A stretch of DNA of 38,912 bases from Candidatus Thorarchaeota archaeon (lineage in GTDB: Archaea > Asgardarchaeota > Thorarchaeia > Thorarchaeales > Thorarchaeaceae). The translations under genes were made by a program, and so were the position numbers. The stretch spans positions 1 through 38,912 of the forward strand of contig JBHLRZ010000033.1 in assembly GCA_048882045.1 (NCBI GenBank), given 5' to 3'. Under the pieces are notes generated by a model. The model did not search any database and was not told the origin of the DNA. It saw nothing but the letters and a program-made list of their open reading frames with translations. Shown piece after piece: positions 4,934 to 22,795 of this stretch (the stretch's first letter is position 1; each line of letters starts with the position of its first letter).

Positions 4934-5469
4934 ATTCCGTATCCCATTTTACGCTTGACGTCTGGGTCAATCTTGTCAAAGACTATCTTGCATGGAGTGG
5001 GCATTTTTGGTGCAGCCTTCTTTAATGCCTGCATTGCAGGTTTAATGTGTCTGTTGTTGACGCGAATTGTAATCAAGGGCTGTCCTGGTCTCACTCTTGC
5101 GGCAATACCAATCACCTTGCCCCAAGCCTTTCGCATTCCATCCTGTACACGGTCTGCTCCAGCTCCGGAGATCATCTTATTTTCTCTGAGGTAGTGATAC
5201 GGCTTAATTCGAATCCTCAGATGATAGTTCTGTCGACCCACCTTCTTGGTCATATCCCTATTAGAAGCAACTCGTGCAGCTTCGAGGGCTTGGTGCCTGA
5301 TTTGGCATCTCTCAAGACCAACAAGTGAGAGTTCGACCTCAAAATCACCACTAGTGTTACCCATGTCAAAGCTCACTATACGGCTGGCTGGTTGACGATG
5401 GATGTACTTCTTTCGTACGAATGGAGGGCGGTCGCATTCTCGATAACACTGTCCAGGTCGTTTACCCAT
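4930..5469 (-). CDS. rpl10e: 50S ribosomal protein uL16 (L10e)
   Basis: MGKRPGQCYR, ALEAARV, RENKMISGAGADRVQDGMRKAWGK; AGGTGA Shine-Dalgarno before ATG at 5469. Confidence 0.97.
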   Translation of the reverse strand: MGKRPGQCYRECDRPPFVRKKYIHRQPASRIVSFDMGNTSGDFEVELSLVGLERCQIRHQALEAARVASNRDMTKKVGRQNYHLRIRIKPYHYLRENKMISGAGADRVQDGMRKAWGKVIGIAARVRPGQPLITIRVNNRHIKPAMQALKKAAPKMPTPCKIVFDKIDPDVKRKMGYGI

Positions 5470-5539: not shown

Positions 5540-5560
5540 AAAGGATTATGGACTGTCTAT
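5540..5560 (+). repeat. Boundary motif copy 1, AAAGGATTATGGACTGTCTAT
   Basis: 21/21 identical to 8399-8419. Confidence 0.9.
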
Positions 5561-5564
5561 TGAA

Positions 5565-6485
5565 TCAAGAACTGTATTTTCTAAGCAACTCCCTGAAATC
5601 AGAATCATGCTGCAGACCCATAAACTCAGCTGACGAGAGGACTCTATTTAGAATGCTGCGATCATACGCGATTGCCTCATCGAGAGCTAGAATGGCTTTT
5701 CGCGTTTGTCCAAGGGCGTATAGTGCACGAGCCATATAGAAATATGCCATTGGACTTTGATCAATCTCAAGACTCTTCTGAAACTTCTCAAGAGCCTCAT
5801 CATATCTTCTAACCTGAAGCAAACGGTCACCATAGTATATCCACCCTTTTGCGTCATCTGGTTTGATTTCTGTGCTTTTTTCTAGAAGTCCCAATGCTTC
5901 CTCAGTCCTACCTTGACTAAACAGAAGTGTACCTAGTGCTACATACGGAAAATGTGTTTCTGGATGAATCTGAATAATCCGCTCGTAGATGGATTGAGCT
6001 TCATCAAACCTCTCTAGTTGAAGAAGACAATGTGCTCTAATTTGCATGACATTGGGATTATCAGGTTTATTCCTTTCTGCAATATCCAATGCTCTCAGAC
6101 AGTAAGTGTATTCCTCACATTTCACTAAATAGTCAGCCAGCTGCAAGGCATCTGTACCTCTTTGTAGAACGAGTGAAACCATCGCTGCTCGAATTGTAGC
6201 TGCATTTTGATAGAATGTACTAACGTTGTCCAAAGCAGCTGCCTTCTGAAATGCCCCCAGAGCCTCATCCATGAGTACAAGGTGCCGATAGACCATTCCT
6301 AAATGATACCAAATGTACCAGTTGTCTGGATGTTTTTCACTGGCTTTAACAAGTTCTTTTATTGCGTCATCATACTTCTCCTTTCGGATTAGTTTGACTC
6401 CACGTTTGGCACGCTTGTCCTTCTCACCTTCTTTCAGGAATTGCTCTTGCGTTTCCTCGGTGACAGTCATTGAATCTTCATTCAT
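5565..6485 (-). CDS. Tetratricopeptide repeat protein
   Basis: Multiple TPR units (WYHLGMVY..EALGAFQKA, YVALGTLL..GRTEEAL, AYFYMARALY). Confidence 0.9.
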   Translation of the reverse strand: MNEDSMTVTEETQEQFLKEGEKDKRAKRGVKLIRKEKYDDAIKELVKASEKHPDNWYIWYHLGMVYRHLVLMDEALGAFQKAAALDNVSTFYQNAATIRAAMVSLVLQRGTDALQLADYLVKCEEYTYCLRALDIAERNKPDNPNVMQIRAHCLLQLERFDEAQSIYERIIQIHPETHFPYVALGTLLFSQGRTEEALGLLEKSTEIKPDDAKGWIYYGDRLLQVRRYDEALEKFQKSLEIDQSPMAYFYMARALYALGQTRKAILALDEAIAYDRSILNRVLSSAEFMGLQHDSDFRELLRKYSS

Positions 6486-6561
6486 GCTATAATCACCCTC
6501 TCAACTTACAAGCTACCCTTGGATTTAAAGAAGTCTAGAGTAATGCTTTGGTAGTTAGGTG

Positions 6562-6577
6562 AAAGGATTATGGACTG
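6562..6577 (+). repeat. Boundary motif copy 2, AAAGGATTATGGACTG
   Basis: 16/16 identical to the first 16 nt of copies 1 and 3. Confidence 0.85.
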
Positions 6578-6641
6578 GATATGTCTTTTATGCACAATGT
6601 AAGTAGACAGTAGAGTACATTGCTTAACAGTAGTTGAATTG

Positions 6642-6685
6642 ATAGATGAGTTTGGGTAGGTTAATAGATGAGTCTGGGTAGGTCA
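6642..6685 (+). repeat. 22-bp tandem duplication ATAGATGAGTYTGGGTAGGTYA x2
   Basis: 6642-6663 and 6664-6685 differ at 2 positions. Confidence 0.9.
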
Positions 6686-6719
6686 ATGTTTTTCTGACAA
6701 TGTTCATACATTGTAACGG

Positions 6720-7184
6720 GTGGAATCTTTGGATCGAGGGGACTATTGGATTCCAATAATCGTCTGTGTTAGTCTAGTTTCACCGATAGCTTGGGTTGAA
6801 TACCTCGACATGTTCATGGAAGCCTCGATGAGATATCTGGCATTTCCTTGGTTTGTCTATAGCCCAATAACTGGAAACGTTACACCACTCATATTTCATC
6901 CTCAACCATTTCATCCATCAGTTGTCTGGGTAGGAATTCTCTGGAGTGTCTTGGGGCTGCTTCTTATCCCGATATTGAGGTCAGGATTTCAGAGGTCCTT
7001 ATGGGGATTCACTCTTTTAGGAGGATTCCTTGTTTTCACACTTCAGAATACGATTGTCATGTTTGGATTCTTCCCAACTATAGACTTCGTCTTTGTCGAG
7101 ATACTCCCAATACCGACCCCAGCTCTCATCGCATTCATCATCATTTTTGAGAAATACTATCGAAACAGAAGGAGCAATGTATGA
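6720..7184 (+). CDS. Hypothetical multi-pass membrane protein (family A)
   Basis: Hydrophobic segments; FPWFVY and LPIPTP shared with 9154-9606. Confidence 0.7.
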   Translation: MESLDRGDYWIPIIVCVSLVSPIAWVEYLDMFMEASMRYLAFPWFVYSPITGNVTPLIFHPQPFHPSVVWVGILWSVLGLLLIPILRSGFQRSLWGFTLLGGFLVFTLQNTIVMFGFFPTIDFVFVEILPIPTPALIAFIIIFEKYYRNRRSNV

Positions 7185-7624
7185 TTATTGTTACAGTTGT
7201 CGCACTGGTATCATGGGGGATATTCAAACGTTATGGGAAGCAAAATTCAATTGCGAGTCTTCTCATAGTTTCAGCTTTAATTTCGTTTATCGTCATTATC
7301 AATGTTAGGACTGCAGGAGTGTTCAGAGAGGAAATATCACCAGACTATGATATTGTCCACAATAACAGCGTTGCATTGTTCCCCTTTGTGGTTCAGAAGC
7401 ACCATAACTGGTCATCGCAGGAGTACTTCTATCAGGTTTGTCTACTAAGTCAAGATGGAATTATTGTGTATGAGGAAGGTCCGAGTCCCGATCAGAGTGA
7501 GTTCATGCATTGGTCCCTATTTTTGATTTCTGCGACTCTCTGTGGGCTAGGATTCTTTCTTGCCGTGTGGATGATTATCGTTGCTGAATTGATATGGTGG
7601 TATCGATTACAAGGGAGTGGTTGA
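7181..7624 (+). CDS. Hypothetical membrane protein (family B)
   Basis: TM helices around a loop FPFVVQKHHN..FYQV..DQSEFMH, shared with 9585-10370. Confidence 0.7.
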   Translation: MIIVTVVALVSWGIFKRYGKQNSIASLLIVSALISFIVIINVRTAGVFREEISPDYDIVHNNSVALFPFVVQKHHNWSSQEYFYQVCLLSQDGIIVYEEGPSPDQSEFMHWSLFLISATLCGLGFFLAVWMIIVAELIWWYRLQGSG

Positions 7625-7761
7625 AATCATATACCATCAGTAGGGACTGTCTGTGTGAATTGAGAGCCACTACTTGATCAAGATGGCAGGACAAATTTAT
7701 ACACGCTCTTGCGTCAATGGTCTTGAAGGACTTTTGTCAAATTTCTATACTGGAATGTCAA

Positions 7762-8343
7762 ATGAAGAGGGTGAAGATAGTCTTATTCGCAGTCATTGGC
7801 ATTATACTCACTTCCATGACGGTATACGACCTACTTCCATATCGAGAAAGAAACTATGTCACGCACGCCGGTTCAACATCACAGTCCTTTGACCTGGTCT
7901 TCAACTCTACATATCCGTGGATTGAGATTAGTGTGGATCCATTCATCGACATTCAGGATCCATTCCCGGATACAATCAATACTCTCTTGTTTTCAGCAAG
8001 TATCAACGTGTCATATCACATATCCAGTTCTGAGTGGACTGCTTCCCTATACTCCCCTTTAGGTTATGTTGACTGCAATACAACAGAAACCTATCATAAC
8101 GCGGATTGGGGGAACAACCAACGTTGGTTCCAATTCTATAACAATAATAGAACTGACTTCGCCTTTTTCTTCACGTACACTGCAAACTATAGTTTAGAAA
8201 TGATATACACACGACCACCCAAGACCTATGCGTGGGAAACTTTACGCTCATTCCTTACAACAGAGGGGGTCATCTTTGCATGCGTGGTCCTTATTGCATC
8301 AATATTGGTTTATGTAAGTGTCAAAATTGCAAGAGATTCCTGA
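7762..8343 (+). CDS. Hypothetical surface protein with N- and C-terminal TM helices (family C)
   Basis: MKRVKI start, GSTSQSFDLVFNST, DIQDPF, PKTYAW; paralog of 11075-11668. Confidence 0.78.
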   Translation: MKRVKIVLFAVIGIILTSMTVYDLLPYRERNYVTHAGSTSQSFDLVFNSTYPWIEISVDPFIDIQDPFPDTINTLLFSASINVSYHISSSEWTASLYSPLGYVDCNTTETYHNADWGNNQRWFQFYNNNRTDFAFFFTYTANYSLEMIYTRPPKTYAWETLRSFLTTEGVIFACVVLIASILVYVSVKIARDS

Positions 8344-8398
8344 ACCTCAATCACTTGTCGATTTTGATAAATTATAATCCCCTGACCTTGGTACGCTC

Positions 8399-8419
8399 AA
8401 AGGATTATGGACTGTCTAT
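8399..8419 (+). repeat. Boundary motif copy 3, AAAGGATTATGGACTGTCTAT
   Basis: Identical to 5540-5560; lies between converging gene ends. Confidence 0.9.
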
Positions 8420-8422
8420 ATG

Positions 8423-9142
8423 CTACCGAGTCCAATGTAGTTCCACGAATGTGAACCCATATAGCATCAGTGAAACAACGCCCCAGTACAGCAGGAACCA
8501 GAGGATATACCTCAGAGGTCTTCCTTTCGCTAAGCGAGGATACTTTTCTAAGAATGCAAAAAGAGAAACCTTTGGGAGAAGAAATGAAGTCCTGTCACAG
8601 TATTCGATGAATTCAGTTCCGAAATTTTTGACAAGTGTTCGCTCTTCAAGATCAGCTGCGACTATCAGCATGAATGCTACAAGTGACCAGGAGAGGATGT
8701 CACCAGGTCTTATTCCAGTCCACCATGTAGAGTAGCTGCTATTGAACAGAGCGAGGGGAAGAAGGAACATGATAATACCAAGATGTTGTGGATGCCGTAC
8801 CCAACGATAGGGCCCCGATGTAACAAGAGGTATAGGATCTGACCTTTTTCGGGTCATTTCGAACAGAGCACGAAGAAAAAGAACCGATCCTGCGAGGAAT
8901 AGTGTTCCCTGCATAATACCTATGATAAGAGCACCTAGCGGACCTGGAGATGGACTCCAAAGACCTCCCCATATCGGACTGAAGGGAAAGATGAACCCAA
9001 TAACAAACCAGGCACTATACCACGCAGGCAGCAACCAAAGCATCGGTGTTATGATACCTGCGATGACGGGGAGGTATGTGAAAGCGGAAGACAGACCTAA
9101 TAATAGACGACCAATGATTTTGTTTCTTTCAATAAGTGTCAT
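8423..9142 (-). CDS. Isoprenylcysteine carboxyl methyltransferase/PEMT-family membrane protein
   Basis: LVTSGPYRWVRHPQHLG, EERTLVKNFG..EYC. Confidence 0.85.
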   Translation of the reverse strand: MTLIERNKIIGRLLLGLSSAFTYLPVIAGIITPMLWLLPAWYSAWFVIGFIFPFSPIWGGLWSPSPGPLGALIIGIMQGTLFLAGSVLFLRALFEMTRKRSDPIPLVTSGPYRWVRHPQHLGIIMFLLPLALFNSSYSTWWTGIRPGDILSWSLVAFMLIVAADLEERTLVKNFGTEFIEYCDRTSFLLPKVSLFAFLEKYPRLAKGRPLRYILWFLLYWGVVSLMLYGFTFVELHWTR

Positions 9143-9153
9143 CCGACCTCACA

Positions 9154-9606
9154 TCAATCAACAGCACTCACACTATTTCGCAAAATGTAAAGTACTATCA
9201 GAAAATGGATTGGTAGGGGAATTGGATAGAGAAGATACTCATACAACATGAAACCAACAATAACAACTGACAAACATTGGAGGACTAGAAGGACCTGTGC
9301 TAGAAGACGCACAGACTCAACGTCTCTCTTGTTTTTGAAGTATTGATAACATGCATAGATGATGTAAAAACCAAACCCTAACCAAATCAGTCCAACGAGT
9401 GATAGAACGAGATGGTACATTGAGAAGAAAGGCGGTATGATAACACTCCAATTCAACCAATTTGTAAAGTCATGTAAATAAATCCATAGAGGGAACAACC
9501 AGTATTGGTTCGTTGTCATAGCTACAGTACTCGTTGTTAAAGTCCCATATGGCAACAGAACATTTGTTGCAGTCAAGATAGCTATCAAACCTTTCTGCTT
9601 CTGCAT
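9154..9606 (-). CDS. Hypothetical membrane protein (family A paralog)
   Basis: FPLWIY, YPIPLP, about 4 TM segments. Confidence 0.7.
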   Translation of the reverse strand: MQKQKGLIAILTATNVLLPYGTLTTSTVAMTTNQYWLFPLWIYLHDFTNWLNWSVIIPPFFSMYHLVLSLVGLIWLGFGFYIIYACYQYFKNKRDVESVRLLAQVLLVLQCLSVVIVGFMLYEYLLYPIPLPIHFLIVLYILRNSVSAVD

Positions 9607-10370
9607 AATGACCCCCAACCAAACGATTCTCGGTTAACATCTTTTGACGGATTCATATCAATATACTGGACTGGATTTTGGACTGTGTATTGAACAACTT
9701 CAGATAGTAAAGTGAGTAATGCAAGGGCGTAAACTCCAATTCCTACGAAAGATCCCCAGAAAACAACTCTAAACAAAGGATCTGGAGAGATATATGCCAA
9801 GTGATGAGGAAATAAGTACAAGACGAAAGACAGTAAGAATATTGAAGCTGCCAATATGATCCGTGTAATCCTCTTTCTCTGGCTTCTTTTCGAACTATCT
9901 TTTCTTCCTTCCAAAAGAAAGAACAGTGATAGTGCCATCATCAGAACTGCTGAGATATCTTCACCCAACAGGATGGCAGTATAGTAGTGTGTTTGATGAA
10001 TAAACTCACTCTGGTCATCGACCTCAGGACCTTCGTAGATAGGCACACCATTAGGCCAACCTACAACAATTCGGTAATAGAACTGATTGGTATCATAGTT
10101 TCGATGTTGTTGCATTGTAAGTGGAAAAGCAGTTGGAGGCATAACTCTGAGTTCTTGGTTTAGTCCCGTTGGTATCTCTATTATAGGAATGCTGCCTGCT
10201 GTGAAGGCAGTAATAGCAATGGCAAGCATCGCTATCGTCGCCATCTCAAATGCTCGTTTGGCGGGCTTGCTATTGAGGCGTTTCCATGCTAGGACACATA
10301 CGATGACTGCGATAATCAACTCCGCCACGACAATAACAAGATTGCGTCTAGTTGCAATATGTGTTACCAT
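9585..10370 (-). CDS. Hypothetical membrane protein (family B paralog, C-terminally extended)
   Basis: FPLTMQQHRN..FYYRI..DQSEFIH. Confidence 0.7.
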   Translation of the reverse strand: MVTHIATRRNLVIVVAELIIAVIVCVLAWKRLNSKPAKRAFEMATIAMLAIAITAFTAGSIPIIEIPTGLNQELRVMPPTAFPLTMQQHRNYDTNQFYYRIVVGWPNGVPIYEGPEVDDQSEFIHQTHYYTAILLGEDISAVLMMALSLFFLLEGRKDSSKRSQRKRITRIILAASIFLLSFVLYLFPHHLAYISPDPLFRVVFWGSFVGIGVYALALLTLLSEVVQYTVQNPVQYIDMNPSKDVNRESFGWGSLCRSRKV

Positions 10371-10417
10371 TGTAAAAGGATTGTATCTAACTTTTATTCT
10401 CAATCATTTGGAGATTA

Positions 10418-10921
10418 TCATGGCATAAGTGAAACTTCAAATCTGGTTTCAAAAACTGCTGAACTGTTATCCAGATCGGTGAATCGAATTGCCCATACAT
10501 ATTGACCGACAAGACCCACACCTAAGTATCCAGTGGAGTATCCCGTGCCTATTGGACCCCAGCCAGCACCACCGCAATATCCGTCAAATGATCCGATTTT
10601 CTCATTATCATTGAGGGACATGAAACTGGTCAATGACATGCGCGCAAATCCGAAATCTAGCCTTATGTTGTCCTCGTTGTTGTTGTGGCTGAATAAGTAA
10701 CCCTCAACGCCAATACCACAATCTTCACGACTATCGTCAATCAAGAAAGTCCTAGCATACCATTCCCCGCTATTCAAGCTGATGCTCTCCCCAGGACTTG
10801 AGTAGATGACCTCTGGTTGCTCTGGATATGGAATGGGAGGCATGAAGATGTAAGGACCTGTGAGTATCAGGATTATCACTATGATGAAAGCAATGAATAG
10901 CAGACCTCGTCTTATCTGCAT
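10418..10921 (-). CDS. Hypothetical membrane-anchored exported protein
   Basis: MQIRRG plus N-terminal TM helix, then a beta-rich domain. Confidence 0.65.
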   Translation of the reverse strand: MQIRRGLLFIAFIIVIILILTGPYIFMPPIPYPEQPEVIYSSPGESISLNSGEWYARTFLIDDSREDCGIGVEGYLFSHNNNEDNIRLDFGFARMSLTSFMSLNDNEKIGSFDGYCGGAGWGPIGTGYSTGYLGVGLVGQYVWAIRFTDLDNSSAVFETRFEVSLMP

Positions 10922-11074
10922 GTTTCTCCCACCAAGTTTAATCCTCAAAGGTTTCCAGTTGACAATTAGCTCTCGAAACTTATCTACTCTTGGGAGAGGA
11001 AATCCAGCGTAATAGAAAGGATTCTTTATGATGGAGTGTATCCAATTTCTCAATAGTTGATGCTGGAATGTCAA

Positions 11075-11668
11075 ATGAAGAGGGTAAAGATAGCGATATT
11101 TGTCGTCATCGCCATTCTACTCATCTCCATGACAATATACGATTTCATCCCATACCAAGACAGCGCCCGTATTTCGCAACAGGGTTCGACATCGCGATCA
11201 TATGACCTTGTCTTTAACTCGACGACATCAAGCATTGAAATGTGGATTGATCCGGTCATTGACATCCAAGATCCGTTCTCCAATACAAACAGCACCTATC
11301 TTCTTTCCTATGAGGTCAATATCTCAGTTCTTGTGGAATCCAGTCAAGAGGTGATCTATGCATTTTCTGGTATGACTGCTGGTGTCAACCGTATTTTGAC
11401 CAATATGACTCATGTCTTCAAAGATGTGCGACTGAATGGAAACCGACAGTGGTGCTTGTTCCTAAAGCCTGGGAATACGACCGAAGTTAACTTTGTCTTT
11501 TCATACATAGCTGACTATACAGTGGAAATTCTCTACAATTTACAACCCAAGACTTATGCATGGGCTTCTGTCCTGTCATTCCTTTCAATGAGGGGGATTA
11601 TCTTGGTTGGTGTCATCCTTTTCTCAGCAGTATTGATCTTTGCCGGTATCAAGTTGGCAAGTGATTAA
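11075..11668 (+). CDS. Hypothetical surface protein (family C paralog)
   Basis: MKRVKI, GSTSRSYDLVFNST, DIQDPF, PKTYAW. Confidence 0.78.
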   Translation: MKRVKIAIFVVIAILLISMTIYDFIPYQDSARISQQGSTSRSYDLVFNSTTSSIEMWIDPVIDIQDPFSNTNSTYLLSYEVNISVLVESSQEVIYAFSGMTAGVNRILTNMTHVFKDVRLNGNRQWCLFLKPGNTTEVNFVFSYIADYTVEILYNLQPKTYAWASVLSFLSMRGIILVGVILFSAVLIFAGIKLASD

Positions 11669-11732
11669 GTTTGAATAGAGATGCATTGATAACCTCTTAC
11701 AACCATATTCAGTTTAGGGATATCGCAAGAAA

Positions 11733-11972
11733 TTGGAATGGAGAGAAAAAATAATGGGAAGATCTGGCGTTGCAGCTGGTGTTCTGACATTCCTAGTAGG
11801 ACTAGTACTGGTAGTTGATGATTTACACGACTTTGTGTCGGTTCCTGATTTCTTTCACTTTCTACCAGATTTCGACCCGTACATCATTATGGGATTTCAT
11901 CTACACCATCTCTACTTAGGTATCGTAATCATGCTTATTGGACTGTACGTAGCCATGAAGTACGATGAGTGA
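11733..11972 (+). CDS. Small two-TM membrane protein
   Basis: Two hydrophobic helices; DDLHDF and FHLHHLYLG motifs. Confidence 0.65.
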   Translation: MEWREKIMGRSGVAAGVLTFLVGLVLVVDDLHDFVSVPDFFHFLPDFDPYIIMGFHLHHLYLGIVIMLIGLYVAMKYDE

Positions 11973-14684: not shown

Positions 14685-14725
14685 ACAATCACCAAGTTTT
14701 ATCAAGACATCAATGGATGCCTCAA

Positions 14726-14799
14726 TGGCTCCGATGATGTTATTGGCTATCTGAGGACAGAAATGTCCAGCGACGAGTCATAGTTAGACTGAGGAGCCA
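14726..14799 (+). ncRNA. Box C/D 2'-O-methylation guide sRNA (23S H69/H70 region)
   Basis: Terminal stem TGGCTCC/GGAGCCA, C box ATGATGT, D' CTGA (14751), C' GCGACGA, D CTGA (14789); D guide GAGTCATAGTTA is antisense to UAACUAUGACUC. Confidence 0.85.
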
Positions 14800-14818
14800 C
14801 TTTGCCTGAATACTCGGG

Positions 14819-20488: not shown

Positions 20489-20733
20489 CTCATTGTGTCA
20501 CTGCAGAGGTCCCTGTGATGGGATGTTGATTGAAAAGAAAGTTCAGTCTAATAAAAGCCTTTGTGGCACGGGAAGGTGTTTTCGGAAGGCTTCGTTGATA
20601 GATTGGACTTGTCATTTCAATATGCACTGCATGGTAGCACTGCCAGACGCAATACAACTGTATGTGTTATGATTGAACTCATACGCGCTCAAGTTCAAGC
20701 TGGATTTGCAATCTTCGTATAATGGATTCATAA

Positions 20734-20994
20734 CTATGCTTTACCACTTTGACGCTTGATGTTGCTTCTGTGATAGGCGATAATCACAATTACTCCAAGC
20801 ATCGTTAGTCCAACTTCTGGTAAGGGCAATCTCAGACCATAGACTGCAACCCATTTATTTAGATAGTAACATCGAAAGTAGCCAGAGAGATCAAACCCCG
20901 AACCAGATTCACATCCGTTTATTTGGAAATACGCAATTGATTCGTTTCCTTTGTAAAAGAGGGCTGGGTGTTGTTCTGATAAGAACTGATAGCA
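20734..20994 (-). pseudogene. 5'-truncated gene fragment encoding a C-terminally membrane-anchored protein
   Basis: 87-codon open frame with no plausible start (CYQFLSEQHPALFY...GLTMLGVIVIIAYHRSNIKRQSGKA*), beginning 5 nt from boundary motif copy 4. Confidence 0.55.
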
Positions 20995-20999
20995 TCAGA

Positions 21000-21011
21000 A
21001 CAGTCCATAAT
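21000..21011 (-). repeat. Boundary motif copy 4 (core ATTATGGACTGT, reverse orientation)
   Basis: ACAGTCCATAAT is an exact 12-nt reverse complement of the core. Confidence 0.65.
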
Positions 21012-21026
21012 GCTGAAAGTTTTACA

Positions 21027-21842
21027 CTACGGGTTCAATGCACTCATAATTAACCAATATCGCTTTGCATGGTGGCACTTGATATCAGCAAATCCAGCAT
21101 TTTCAAGATAGGCAGTAAGTGAATCTCCAGTGAAGTACTTGAGCCCGCCCGTTCGGGTTTCTCTAGCAGCTAGTTTCCTACCTATTCTTCCCGTAGGTGC
21201 AAGTGCTGCAGCAACTGTGAAACGCCCGTTAGTCTTGAGCATCCGACGCAAATTATTGAGAAGGTCTGGCAGAAAATCTCCAAAGAGGTGAAGTGCTCCG
21301 CAGCAGTTTATGTTGTTGAACTCATCATCTAGAAAAGGTAAGTTGTTCACATTGGCGTGAATGAATTGGACATTTTTCTGTCCTTTTTTCCTTGCTTGTT
21401 TGCTTGCATTCTTCAACATAGGCAGGGAAAGATCAACTCCAATGACGAATCCAGAATCAACCTTTTCTGAGAGTGGAATTGAATAAGTACCAGGACCACA
21501 AGCTAAGTCTAGAATCGACTCATGTCCAGTTAGGTCCATCGCATCTGTGATTGTCTTGAATTCCTTGGAGAAAGAGATACCGAACATTGTGCCTAGCACA
21601 CGACCCTTCCGCCAGAGTCTGCTGTTGTAGATTCTCGCAACCCAGCCCCATTTCATTGGATTTGAACCAGAAATCATTCCTGGCGACGCTTCTCCAGGCA
21701 ACAGATCAAGAAATCCTTGGCTTACAGGGAAGACCGTACCGCAATTACCACACTGGACGTCTTCATCAAGATCACCCAGCTTTAGTGTGTTTGATTTACA
21801 CGCAGGGCAAGTCAGTTTCATGTCATATAACACAGTAGTCAT
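21027..21842 (-). CDS. Class I SAM-dependent methyltransferase with N-terminal Zn ribbon
   Basis: CPAC..CGNC, ILDLACGPG, GVDLS, LPF, CCGALH; GGTGA Shine-Dalgarno before ATG at 21842. Confidence 0.9.
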   Translation of the reverse strand: MTTVLYDMKLTCPACKSNTLKLGDLDEDVQCGNCGTVFPVSQGFLDLLPGEASPGMISGSNPMKWGWVARIYNSRLWRKGRVLGTMFGISFSKEFKTITDAMDLTGHESILDLACGPGTYSIPLSEKVDSGFVIGVDLSLPMLKNASKQARKKGQKNVQFIHANVNNLPFLDDEFNNINCCGALHLFGDFLPDLLNNLRRMLKTNGRFTVAAALAPTGRIGRKLAARETRTGGLKYFTGDSLTAYLENAGFADIKCHHAKRYWLIMSALNP

Positions 21843-21862
21843 CTTGTTCACCAGATGTGTCA

Positions 21863-21912
21863 TTAAAAGTGAGCCACACTCACTTTTAAATATTGAGTTC
21901 GGCTCACTTTTT
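21863..21912. promoter_or_regulatory. Tandem TetR-type operators
   Basis: Perfect inverted repeat TTAAAAGTGAG-N5-CTCACTTTTAA (21863-21889) and a second TGAG-N5-CTCACTTTT (21894-21911), between the divergent methyltransferase and TetR genes. Confidence 0.8.
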
Positions 21913-21969
21913 AGGTGGCTTGTATAAATGCATCGTGAGGATCCATAATATCTCAAGGAGTAAAACGTC

Positions 21970-22593
21970 ATGTCCGGTTCAACGAAACGCACCTACAACA
22001 AGCAACAGAAAGAGAAAGCGATTCAGGACACTACGGTTGATTTGCTATTAAAACGGGGCTATCCAAACCTTACTACAAAGGAGATTGCAGAGAAAGCAGG
22101 AGTTGCTATAGGTCTTCTCTACAAGTACTTTCCAGCAGGCAAGGTTGAGATAATAAAGCGCATTGCTGAAGGAGTCGCTGAAGGGGCTATTGACAGGGTG
22201 AAACTGAATAGTGAACACTTTGACATTCCAGATGACATTGACATCCGCGAATTTATGCGAAGTTCCATGTTAAAGACTGTTGAATTTCACAGACAAGACA
22301 AGGCCATGATTATAGCTATCGAAATGGCATATCTATCGGATCCTGAGGTTTTTGGTTATCATGCATTAGACAACTATATGAATTACATCAACCTTGCATC
22401 ACGAATGTTTATCAAACTCACAGCTGAGCGGCTAGGTAAGAAAATCGATGAGAACTTTGCGAAATTTGTGATTGACATTGTTGACGCTGCAATCCATCGT
22501 CATATACTCCTCATTCCGAGTGCCCCCACTGATGAAGAATTCGCTAACGCTTTAGCTGACTTGGTTCTCAATCTTTTATCCAGTCAGCAGTAG
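21970..22593 (+). CDS. TetR/AcrR-family transcriptional regulator
   Basis: GYPNLTTKEIAEKAGVAIGLLYKYFP helix-turn-helix. Confidence 0.93.
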   Translation: MSGSTKRTYNKQQKEKAIQDTTVDLLLKRGYPNLTTKEIAEKAGVAIGLLYKYFPAGKVEIIKRIAEGVAEGAIDRVKLNSEHFDIPDDIDIREFMRSSMLKTVEFHRQDKAMIIAIEMAYLSDPEVFGYHALDNYMNYINLASRMFIKLTAERLGKKIDENFAKFVIDIVDAAIHRHILLIPSAPTDEEFANALADLVLNLLSSQQ

Positions 22594-22795
22594 AGGAGAT
22601 TGGCAAGGGTTTGAAGATTTTTTCCCCCTCTCTCATTTTTCCATATTGCCTACAATAGTCGTCTGCACTCTATTGTCTACCTATGTTGATGCATTTAGGG
22701 ATGTAGTATTAATTACAAATAGCATTATCCACTTCTCTATCGAGGAGCGGTTGTTCGGGCGAGTCTTAGAGTGCGAGTTGCGGTAGAAGTTAGGC

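Follow-up and report, generated by a model that had tools for sequence, protein, structure and literature searches.

Which process sets the same short sequence, in the same orientation, between unrelated groups of accessory genes beside a ribosomal-protein gene? The question is raised by a contig of Candidatus Thorarchaeota archaeon (GenBank assembly GCA_048882045.1, contig JBHLRZ010000033.1, positions 1–38,912; this stretch of 38,912 nucleotides is referred to as the window), in which a repeat with a 17-nt core recurs between rpl10e and the gene of a small membrane protein. An earlier note, made from the sequence, had described the repeat as a boundary motif that delimits accessory gene units and as a candidate recombination site. 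The delimiting role was supported by breakpoints, by nested alleles and by at least one module that has moved between species. Directly observed were the restriction of the motif to one locus, the co-orientation of its copies, the position of breakpoints at the motif, the nesting of alleles and one exchange of a module between species. We consider it probable that the insertion, loss and exchange of modules took place physically at the 17-mer, and we lean towards the narrower reading that this sequence is the att-like junction of a cassette-accretion hotspot at the rpl10e promoter, with site-specific insertion.

The repeat and its genomic distribution

The motif was analysed in the genome of the window's own species (G000; a 3.6-Mb assembly, 93% complete) and in 27 relatives, all 28 species-level genomes of the genus being examined. 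Public names of related proteins and an SMTZ1 contig that is identical to the locus of one relative assign this genus to Thorarchaeota. The rpl10e locus was recovered in 25 of the 27 relatives, and 26 oriented relative loci were used for the counts of motif orientation. A position matrix was built from 19 copies in G000 and related genomes; it defined a conserved core of 16–17 nt (AAAGGATTATGGACTGT) with sharp edges. Four copies were located in the window, all on the plus strand. Copy 1, proximal to rpl10e (5540–5560; 30.3 bits), consists of the core plus CTAT, and copy 3 (8399–8419; 30.3 bits) is identical to it over 21 nt, as the earlier note had stated. The recurrence of the start of the repeat at 6562 proved to be a real copy (copy 2, 6562–6582; 25.3 bits), with 16/17 of the core and 19/21 of the 21-mer. 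None of 100 shuffles of the window gave any match to the 21-mer. Copies 2 and 3 lie between divergent and convergent genes, respectively. Copy 4 (9670–9690; 21.8 bits), which is degenerate (17/21) and had been missed, lies within the C-terminal tail of the open reading frame (ORF) 9585–10403, 64 nt upstream of the start at 9606; the statement that all copies are intergenic is therefore wrong.

In a scan of both strands of G000 the motif was restricted to the locus: the top four matrix scores belong to the four co-oriented copies of the rpl10e array (5540–9690). The best site outside the array reached 20.1 bits, compared with 21.8 bits for copy 4, the weakest in the array, and 102 sites scored at least 11 bits. 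The 11-mer core occurs five times in G000, four of them within the window. The motif is a feature of a single locus and not a dispersed site. Two other copies had been listed. The degenerate copy at 7639 (15/19) shares only the right half of the motif; at 5 bits it is not significant relative to the 102 sites at or above 11 bits. The inverted core is indeed present at 21000–21011, but its score of 18.1 bits is inside the genome background. The orthologous position in the same methyltransferase–TetR insert has four mismatches in 14 positions in G002 and no match within four mismatches in G018. This core is most likely to be a chance occurrence, and it was rejected as a second array or island.

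Metagenomes scanned with the 20-mer of the proximal site gave ten matches, three of which are relatives (L063, L071 and L072, the last being the contig of G005); the other seven are chance matches that are not beside rpl10e. A 16/17 copy of the motif was also seen outside the rpl10e island, on contig C90 of G015, beside a homologue of a 138-aa gene of G022.

Breakpoints, nested alleles and module exchange

The stretch from rpl10e to the small membrane-protein gene varies in every recovered relative, measuring about 2–9 kb and differing in content. Cargo in the relatives includes an ABC transporter, MFS and LVIVD proteins, a radical S-adenosylmethionine (SAM) protein with DUF2064, an OYE reductase and many unknowns. 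In blastn comparisons the homology of the window to all relatives ends at 5554–5565, at the right edge of copy 1, which thus marks the switch from core to accessory DNA, as had been proposed; it picks up again near 11680, where a conserved box precedes the small membrane-protein gene. The copy at the rpl10e edge is present in nearly all genomes of the genus, and at least nine genomes carry 2–4 copies (G000, G022, G018, G021, G005, G006, G004, G009 and G019). Every copy of at least 16 bits in the oriented loci has the same orientation and none is inverted. The box at the right boundary is single in every array, with no internal duplicates; only the boundary on the rpl10e side is duplicated.

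Ends of blastn high-scoring segment pairs (HSPs) were compared with motif positions. Within 25 nt of a motif lie 316 of the 1850 HSP ends, against 12.7 expected, although most of the 316 concern the proximal copy and are not independent. At internal copies the homology of a module begins at offset 0–1 or finishes at the motif. By this test the breakpoints of gene gain and loss in relatives coincide with the motif within a few bases. The modules are 0.4–5 kb in length, with 0–4 accessory genes in either orientation.

Comparison of empty and filled alleles at rpl10e revealed nested forms. With M denoting the motif and T the distal segment, the order is rpl10e-M-T in G006, rpl10e-M-ABC-M-T in G022 and rpl10e-M-MFS module-M-ABC-M-T in G018 and G019. 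Relative to G006, exactly one module and one motif are extra in G022 and two in G018. Metagenome contig L090 reads rpl10e-M-SBP_bac_5-M-ABC. The ABC module extends over 2.6 kb from motif to motif and encodes an ABC ATPase and a 548-aa permease with 12 transmembrane (TM) segments. It follows rpl10e directly in G022 and G021 and is second in G018/G019 (after the MFS module), G005 (after two unknown genes), G009 and L090 (after SBP_bac_5); in contig L089 it is preceded by an LRR gene, at a joint without the motif. Six different left neighbours were thus found, motif-joined in five cases. On its left side the module adjoins unrelated sequences that have only the motif in common at the joint; on its right side the two forms of the module part precisely at the left end of the following motif. 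Among five species the module is 89–93% identical at the nucleotide level, compared with 77–80% for their 4-kb GTPase–SpoU–rpl10e core flanks. Since its identity exceeds that of the flanks, the module was passed between species after they diverged. Proximal modules (TPR in the window, MFS, SBP) tend to be lineage-specific, and divergence in the distal T and methyltransferase segments is at the level of core DNA (73–79%), a gradient suggestive of insertion next to rpl10e, at the proximal copy.

Exact matches to the TPR and rpl10e proteins led to eight independent assemblies of this species. Their arrays are collinear and 99.94–100% identical, and this agreement shows that the arrangement is not an assembly artefact. 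Many contigs from metagenomes and metagenome-assembled genomes (MAGs) stop inside the island or within a few hundred bases of a motif (G011:C25, G019:C12/C297, G014:C111, G021:C32, G009:C46, G004:C61/C174/C18, G002:C54 and L063). Such ends would fit strain heterogeneity in those populations, unlike the assemblies of this species.

In the window the copies bracket the units of 1022 bp (TPR gene) and 1837 bp (three membrane genes) that the earlier note had described. Module 1 (5561–6561, minus strand) contains the TPR gene (5565–6485), whose own TTTAAA box is present as claimed; within the genus it is specific to this species and has no DNA match, the closest public protein being 55% identical. 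Module 2 (6583–8398, plus strand) contains three membrane-protein genes (6720–7184, 7181–7624 and 7717–8343), none with a match in Pfam or NCBIfam; homologues of the second and third sit in the arrays of G042, G005 and G006. Module 3 (8420–9669, minus strand) encodes an ICMT/PEMT-like membrane methyltransferase (8423–9142), about 73% identical in nucleotide sequence to copies in the G018, G021 and G014 arrays, and a 150-aa membrane protein (9154–9606). The distal part of the island (9691–11678) contains the ORFs 9585–10403, 10418–11074 and 11057–11668. The first is a diverged paralogue of the second membrane gene of module 2 (32% identity over 56 aa) and the last of the third (42% over 202 aa), in an order and orientation that differ from those of 7181–8343; the recurrence of these diverged paralogues indicates that the island also grew by internal duplication. 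The right boundary is formed by the conserved box (11679–11694, plus strand), about 55–70 nt upstream of the gene of the small 2-TM protein (11754–11972). The island, with a GC content of 0.40–0.43 compared with 0.45–0.49 in the flanks, is situated between two divergent promoters, those of rpl10e and of the small membrane-protein gene.

Proposed mechanism and rival explanations

In the mechanism that we propose, a resident copy of the motif at the outer edge of the rpl10e core promoter would receive modules by recombination at the motif, each insertion leaving a co-oriented copy on both sides and generating the series M-module-M-module. The newest modules would tend to be rpl10e-proximal, in an order of events that we infer, and modules could be lost, reshuffled or transferred between species. 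The order in the window would then read M1, TPR module, M2, three membrane genes, M3, methyltransferase module, M4 (decayed) and older DNA. The reaction may be a conservative exchange with a circular module (Campbell-type) or staggered cutting with duplication of the target. A site-specific reaction fits best because the duplication is sharp-edged, co-oriented and single-sided.

The case for recombination rests on the internal copies, since promoter constraint could explain the proximal one. Eleven internal copies have only the 17-mer in common; their left edge is uniformly sharp and their flanks are unrelated, and all classes of internal copy end at the same right edge. They are located between tandem, divergent and convergent genes, mostly without a TATA flank and facing gene 3′ ends. 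As their gene contexts are mixed and the TATA flank is mostly missing, they do not form one uniform type of promoter or terminator signal.

The arrangement resembles the tandem accretion of integrative elements and integrase-less cis-mobilizable elements at one att site in having a direct repeat of the att core at each junction and an attB in conserved sequence; some distal repeats here also carry an extended 5′ region of the target, as att sites that rebuild a target gene do. It differs in that the modules are plain cargo without integrase, replication or mobilization genes, and in that the resident genomes are without tyrosine and serine recombinases. The nearest Asgard precedent is found in Atabeyarchaeia, where an 11-bp attachment motif flanks integrated, integrase-bearing elements (PMC11529989). 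Additive flexible genomic islands also form a hypervariable segment of lower GC between housekeeping blocks, with transporter and membrane cargo, but they usually have no repeated junction sequence, whereas here a co-oriented 17-mer marks the joints.

Several findings weigh against site-specific insertion. The first concerns the enzyme. G000, a 93% complete MAG, gave no match to PF00589, PF00239, PF01548, PF01797, PF01609, PF01867 or PF16795; it has no tyrosine or serine recombinase, no IS110, Y1 or DDE transposase and no Cas1, only three TnpB-like genes. In the genus, PF00589 was detected in eight of the 28 genomes but never at the locus (the control genomes all gave matches in this search), SSV-type PF16795 in none of the 28 and Cas1 in one, and no recombinase is encoded in any array. 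Given that no known recombinase family is present, the catalyst would be an unrecognized protein or would be supplied in trans by an unbinned element. Virus contigs scanned with the 16-mer gave 13 matches, all to unrelated phage (27–41% GC, unrelated flanks). A 482-aa family without a Pfam match that is found beside one motif copy (F37) was considered as the catalyst and rejected because it is sporadic, its array-linked pair is only 29% identical and it is missing from most genomes with arrays. A XerA-type tyrosine recombinase was not found in 20 of the 28 genomes, although these are MAGs and absence is not proven; in view of the scarcity of such recombinases it may be asked by what means chromosome dimers are resolved.

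The proximal copy is itself a second difficulty. Its left end overlaps the presumed TATA box and TFB recognition element (BRE) of rpl10e on the minus strand, its distance upstream from the rpl10e start is about 62–71 nt in every member of the genus that was examined, and a class-wide pattern search found the motif upstream of rpl10e, with two changed bases, in genus g22. The conservation of the proximal copy and the breakpoint at its edge could thus reflect promoter constraint alone. Matches in g25 and g29 were rejected as the rpl10e site, having another conserved flank and no rpl10e, GTPase or SpoU gene nearby. Some of the copies also extend beyond the 17-mer. One event shows a 29-nt match to the proximal site, and two internal copies are duplicates of about 110 nt of the rpl10e 5′ region (L016:11894–12002 in G005 and L018:1416–1529 in G004) that comprise the first 24–33 nt of rpl10e, the 5′ untranslated region, the promoter and the motif, both finishing at its right edge. 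The duplicate in G004 is nearer to the region of G022 (85%) than to that of G004 itself (73%). For the 110-nt and 29-nt copies the import of fragments of foreign arrays fits as well as mimicry of an att site.

Thirdly, the variation is not all motif-bounded, and arrays are also reshaped by plain indels and by a second repeat, E2. This 139-nt repeat occurs only in the rpl10e islands of about 20 relatives, where it invariably has the orientation of the motif, and is missing from the window and from G000; copies were located at L013:9391–9529 (G022), L037:1272–1410, L020:1011–1143 and L016:9365–9502. It often follows the proximal copy by 30–80 nt, abuts the motif in three cases (2–4 nt upstream of it) and is present as half-copies at joints. 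The helices of E2 covary, and the repeat further contains a AATAAAAC box and a K-turn-like internal loop (GA/GAUGA); nothing in Rfam matches it. E2 probably represents either a structured site or a gene for a small RNA that has escaped annotation. Joints are marked by E2 as well, and it is likely to be a recombination substrate. G018 and G019, which are about 95% identical, differ in a 1.6-kb stretch of G018 in which two E2 copies flank a gene, against a single E2 in G019, a difference consistent with E2–E2 recombination. Finally, no empty or alternative allele was found among the eight assemblies of this species; the array is static in this population, with nothing detectably moving.

The main rival is short-homology recombination between promoter-constrained copies, which we regard as possible, if rather unlikely. 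It would require no dedicated enzyme: a 17-mer conserved for its promoter role and accidentally duplicated would allow RadA-dependent or microhomology-mediated recombination between motif copies, be it within one chromosome, between copies of the chromosome or with incoming DNA, and so give rise to loop-out circles, re-insertions, deletions and exchanges. Consistent with this are the failure to detect any recombinase family in G000 and almost any in the genus, the fit of the G018/G019 difference to E2–E2 recombination, the 110-nt duplicates, which show that ordinary duplication or import also occurs, and the static array of this species. On the other hand, 17 bp is very short for homologous recombination, yet the 17-mer is the only sequence common to most junctions. 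The identical sharp left edge of eleven copies and the co-orientation of all copies also argue against such an origin, as does the multiplication of the motif alone and not of the equally conserved box at the right boundary.

Unlikely, too, is a new cassette-capture system, in which an enzyme outside the known recombinase, transposase and Cas1 families would cut or recombine the 17-nt site and add modules on the leader-proximal side with duplication of the repeat, and in which E2 may be involved. Among known systems the Cas1-type reactions of CRISPR and casposons may also be compared. As in these, growth here would be polarized, next to a 'leader' that contains a promoter, and each insertion would duplicate a short repeat, whose edges are sharp; the inserts are of unrelated sequence without common ends. 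CRISPR insertion duplicates the repeat, and casposons give target-site duplications of 14–15 bp and tandem arrays. In contrast to the known systems, Cas1 is restricted to a single genome of the genus, the inserts are kilobase-sized gene modules and there are no terminal inverted repeats, save one 7/8 match that may be fortuitous.

It is improbable, in our assessment, that the motif is a transcription signal only (a TFB/BRE-proximal element, an operator or an insulator), with internal copies kept for the regulation of module genes and their border position a by-product. Such a role would account for the proximal copy, with its fixed position across the genus, its left end, which has the form of a TTTTAT-type TATA when read along the rpl10e strand, and its counterpart in g22, and copies 2 and 4 of the window precede leftward genes by 77 and 64 nt, respectively. 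The earlier note had named a fixed distance upstream of conserved genes as evidence for a transcription-factor site; this holds for the rpl10e-proximal copy but not for the internal copies, which are upstream of a leftward gene no more often than expected by chance, have mixed gene contexts and mostly no adjacent TATA. An archaeal core-promoter element therefore fits the proximal copy only. Moreover, the arrays encode no regulator, and the nested alleles and the 90%-identical module in different contexts would be left unexplained.

The earlier note had suggested an integron- or pdif-like system, with the motif as a half-site of a tyrosine recombinase. Archaeal integrons and integrase-less attC clusters (CALINs) have been described (Ghaly et al., 2022; PMC9668308), and integrons, mostly integrase-less arrays, were reported in Asgard MAGs (PMC9668308). 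The architecture is similar: a fixed proximal site by a conserved gene, with insertion beside it, co-oriented sites between accessory units, nested and reshuffled arrays in which younger units tend to be proximal, and exchange of units between species; Xer/dif and pdif systems likewise bracket accessory gene modules with short sites. However, 77-nt windows folded around 23 copies had no shared stem and z-scores near 0, so that the lack of an attC hairpin, already observed in the earlier note, was upheld. The best complementarity in dif-like 11-6-11 arms was 5–7/11, the same as in shuffled sequence, and Rfam gave no match in the window and five arrays. The conserved core of 17 nt differs from the folded attC of 57–141 nt with its inverse-core and core sites, and the 28-nt two-arm 11-6-11 palindrome of dif is not present. 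The units of 0.4–5 kb contain 0–4 genes on either strand with their own promoters, whereas most cassettes of integrons are co-oriented and consist of one ORF without a promoter. There is one locus per genome, beside a ribosomal-protein promoter, the neighbours being GTPase, SpoU and rpl10e genes without IntI. A true integron or Xer/pdif-type system, using IntI, XerA or a XerC/D-like enzyme, is accordingly very unlikely and largely refuted: G000 and most array-bearing genomes are without a tyrosine recombinase, no Xer protein was found, neither hairpins nor arms were detected, the sites are direct and not alternately inverted as in pdif modules, and they are not at a replication terminus or on plasmids.

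Neighbouring features and implications

The rpl10e gene (ribosomal protein L10e/L16; Pfam PF00252; 4930–5469, minus strand) is the left conserved gene of the island, and its ATG at 5469 is the start used in public records (179 aa; three NCBI assemblies). Left of copy 1 are the genes of SRP54, an RNA methyltransferase, a DRG-type GTPase and a SpoU methylase, followed by rpl10e. Right of the island are those of the small 2-TM protein, a glyoxalase and deoxyhypusine synthase (DHS), and rpl35ae. The small protein has 79 aa and no relative in the PDB, and conserved neighbours of 211 and 186 aa have no match in Pfam or NCBIfam. At the start of the contig (3–1055) lies one of the three TnpB-like genes of G000, with a Cas12f1-like TNB domain; a longer public assembly from this strain shows it at full length (354 aa), and it is not kept at that position in relatives.

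Two other variable spots were observed. At 20676–22795 an insert with a SAM-methyltransferase and a TetR gene lies between an Arf-like GTPase gene and a roadblock gene. Among relatives it is present in G018 and G002 only, and its borders are not motif-marked; its flanks adjoin each other in G005 and are separated by just 121 nt in G015 and G024. Homology of the window to the relatives that carry this insert stops at 22581, short of 22664–22694, a segment whose resemblance to 6590–6619 amounts to 8/31 ungapped and is alignable only with a gap. The other spot, at about 14685–14818 between rpl35ae and the 186-aa gene (L038:6326–7774; L013:14215–14631), is occupied by a 482-aa gene without a Pfam match in G024 and by the 138-aa gene in G022.

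How Asgard archaea gain and exchange genes is little understood, and gene flow in this group bears on ideas about the origin of eukaryotes. The rpl10e locus provides a concrete and repeatable case in which modules with transporters, membrane proteins and methyltransferases pile up at one spot, disappear from it and cross between species. It is also a marker for strain-level gene flow in sediment metagenomes. Because these genomes have almost no recognizable recombinases, the locus offers a defined DNA substrate for finding the responsible activity. If there is no dedicated enzyme, it still illustrates how a sequence at the edge of a promoter becomes the seam of a genomic island. The pattern is clean and replicated across species, and the enzymology of the lineage would have to be new or borrowed.

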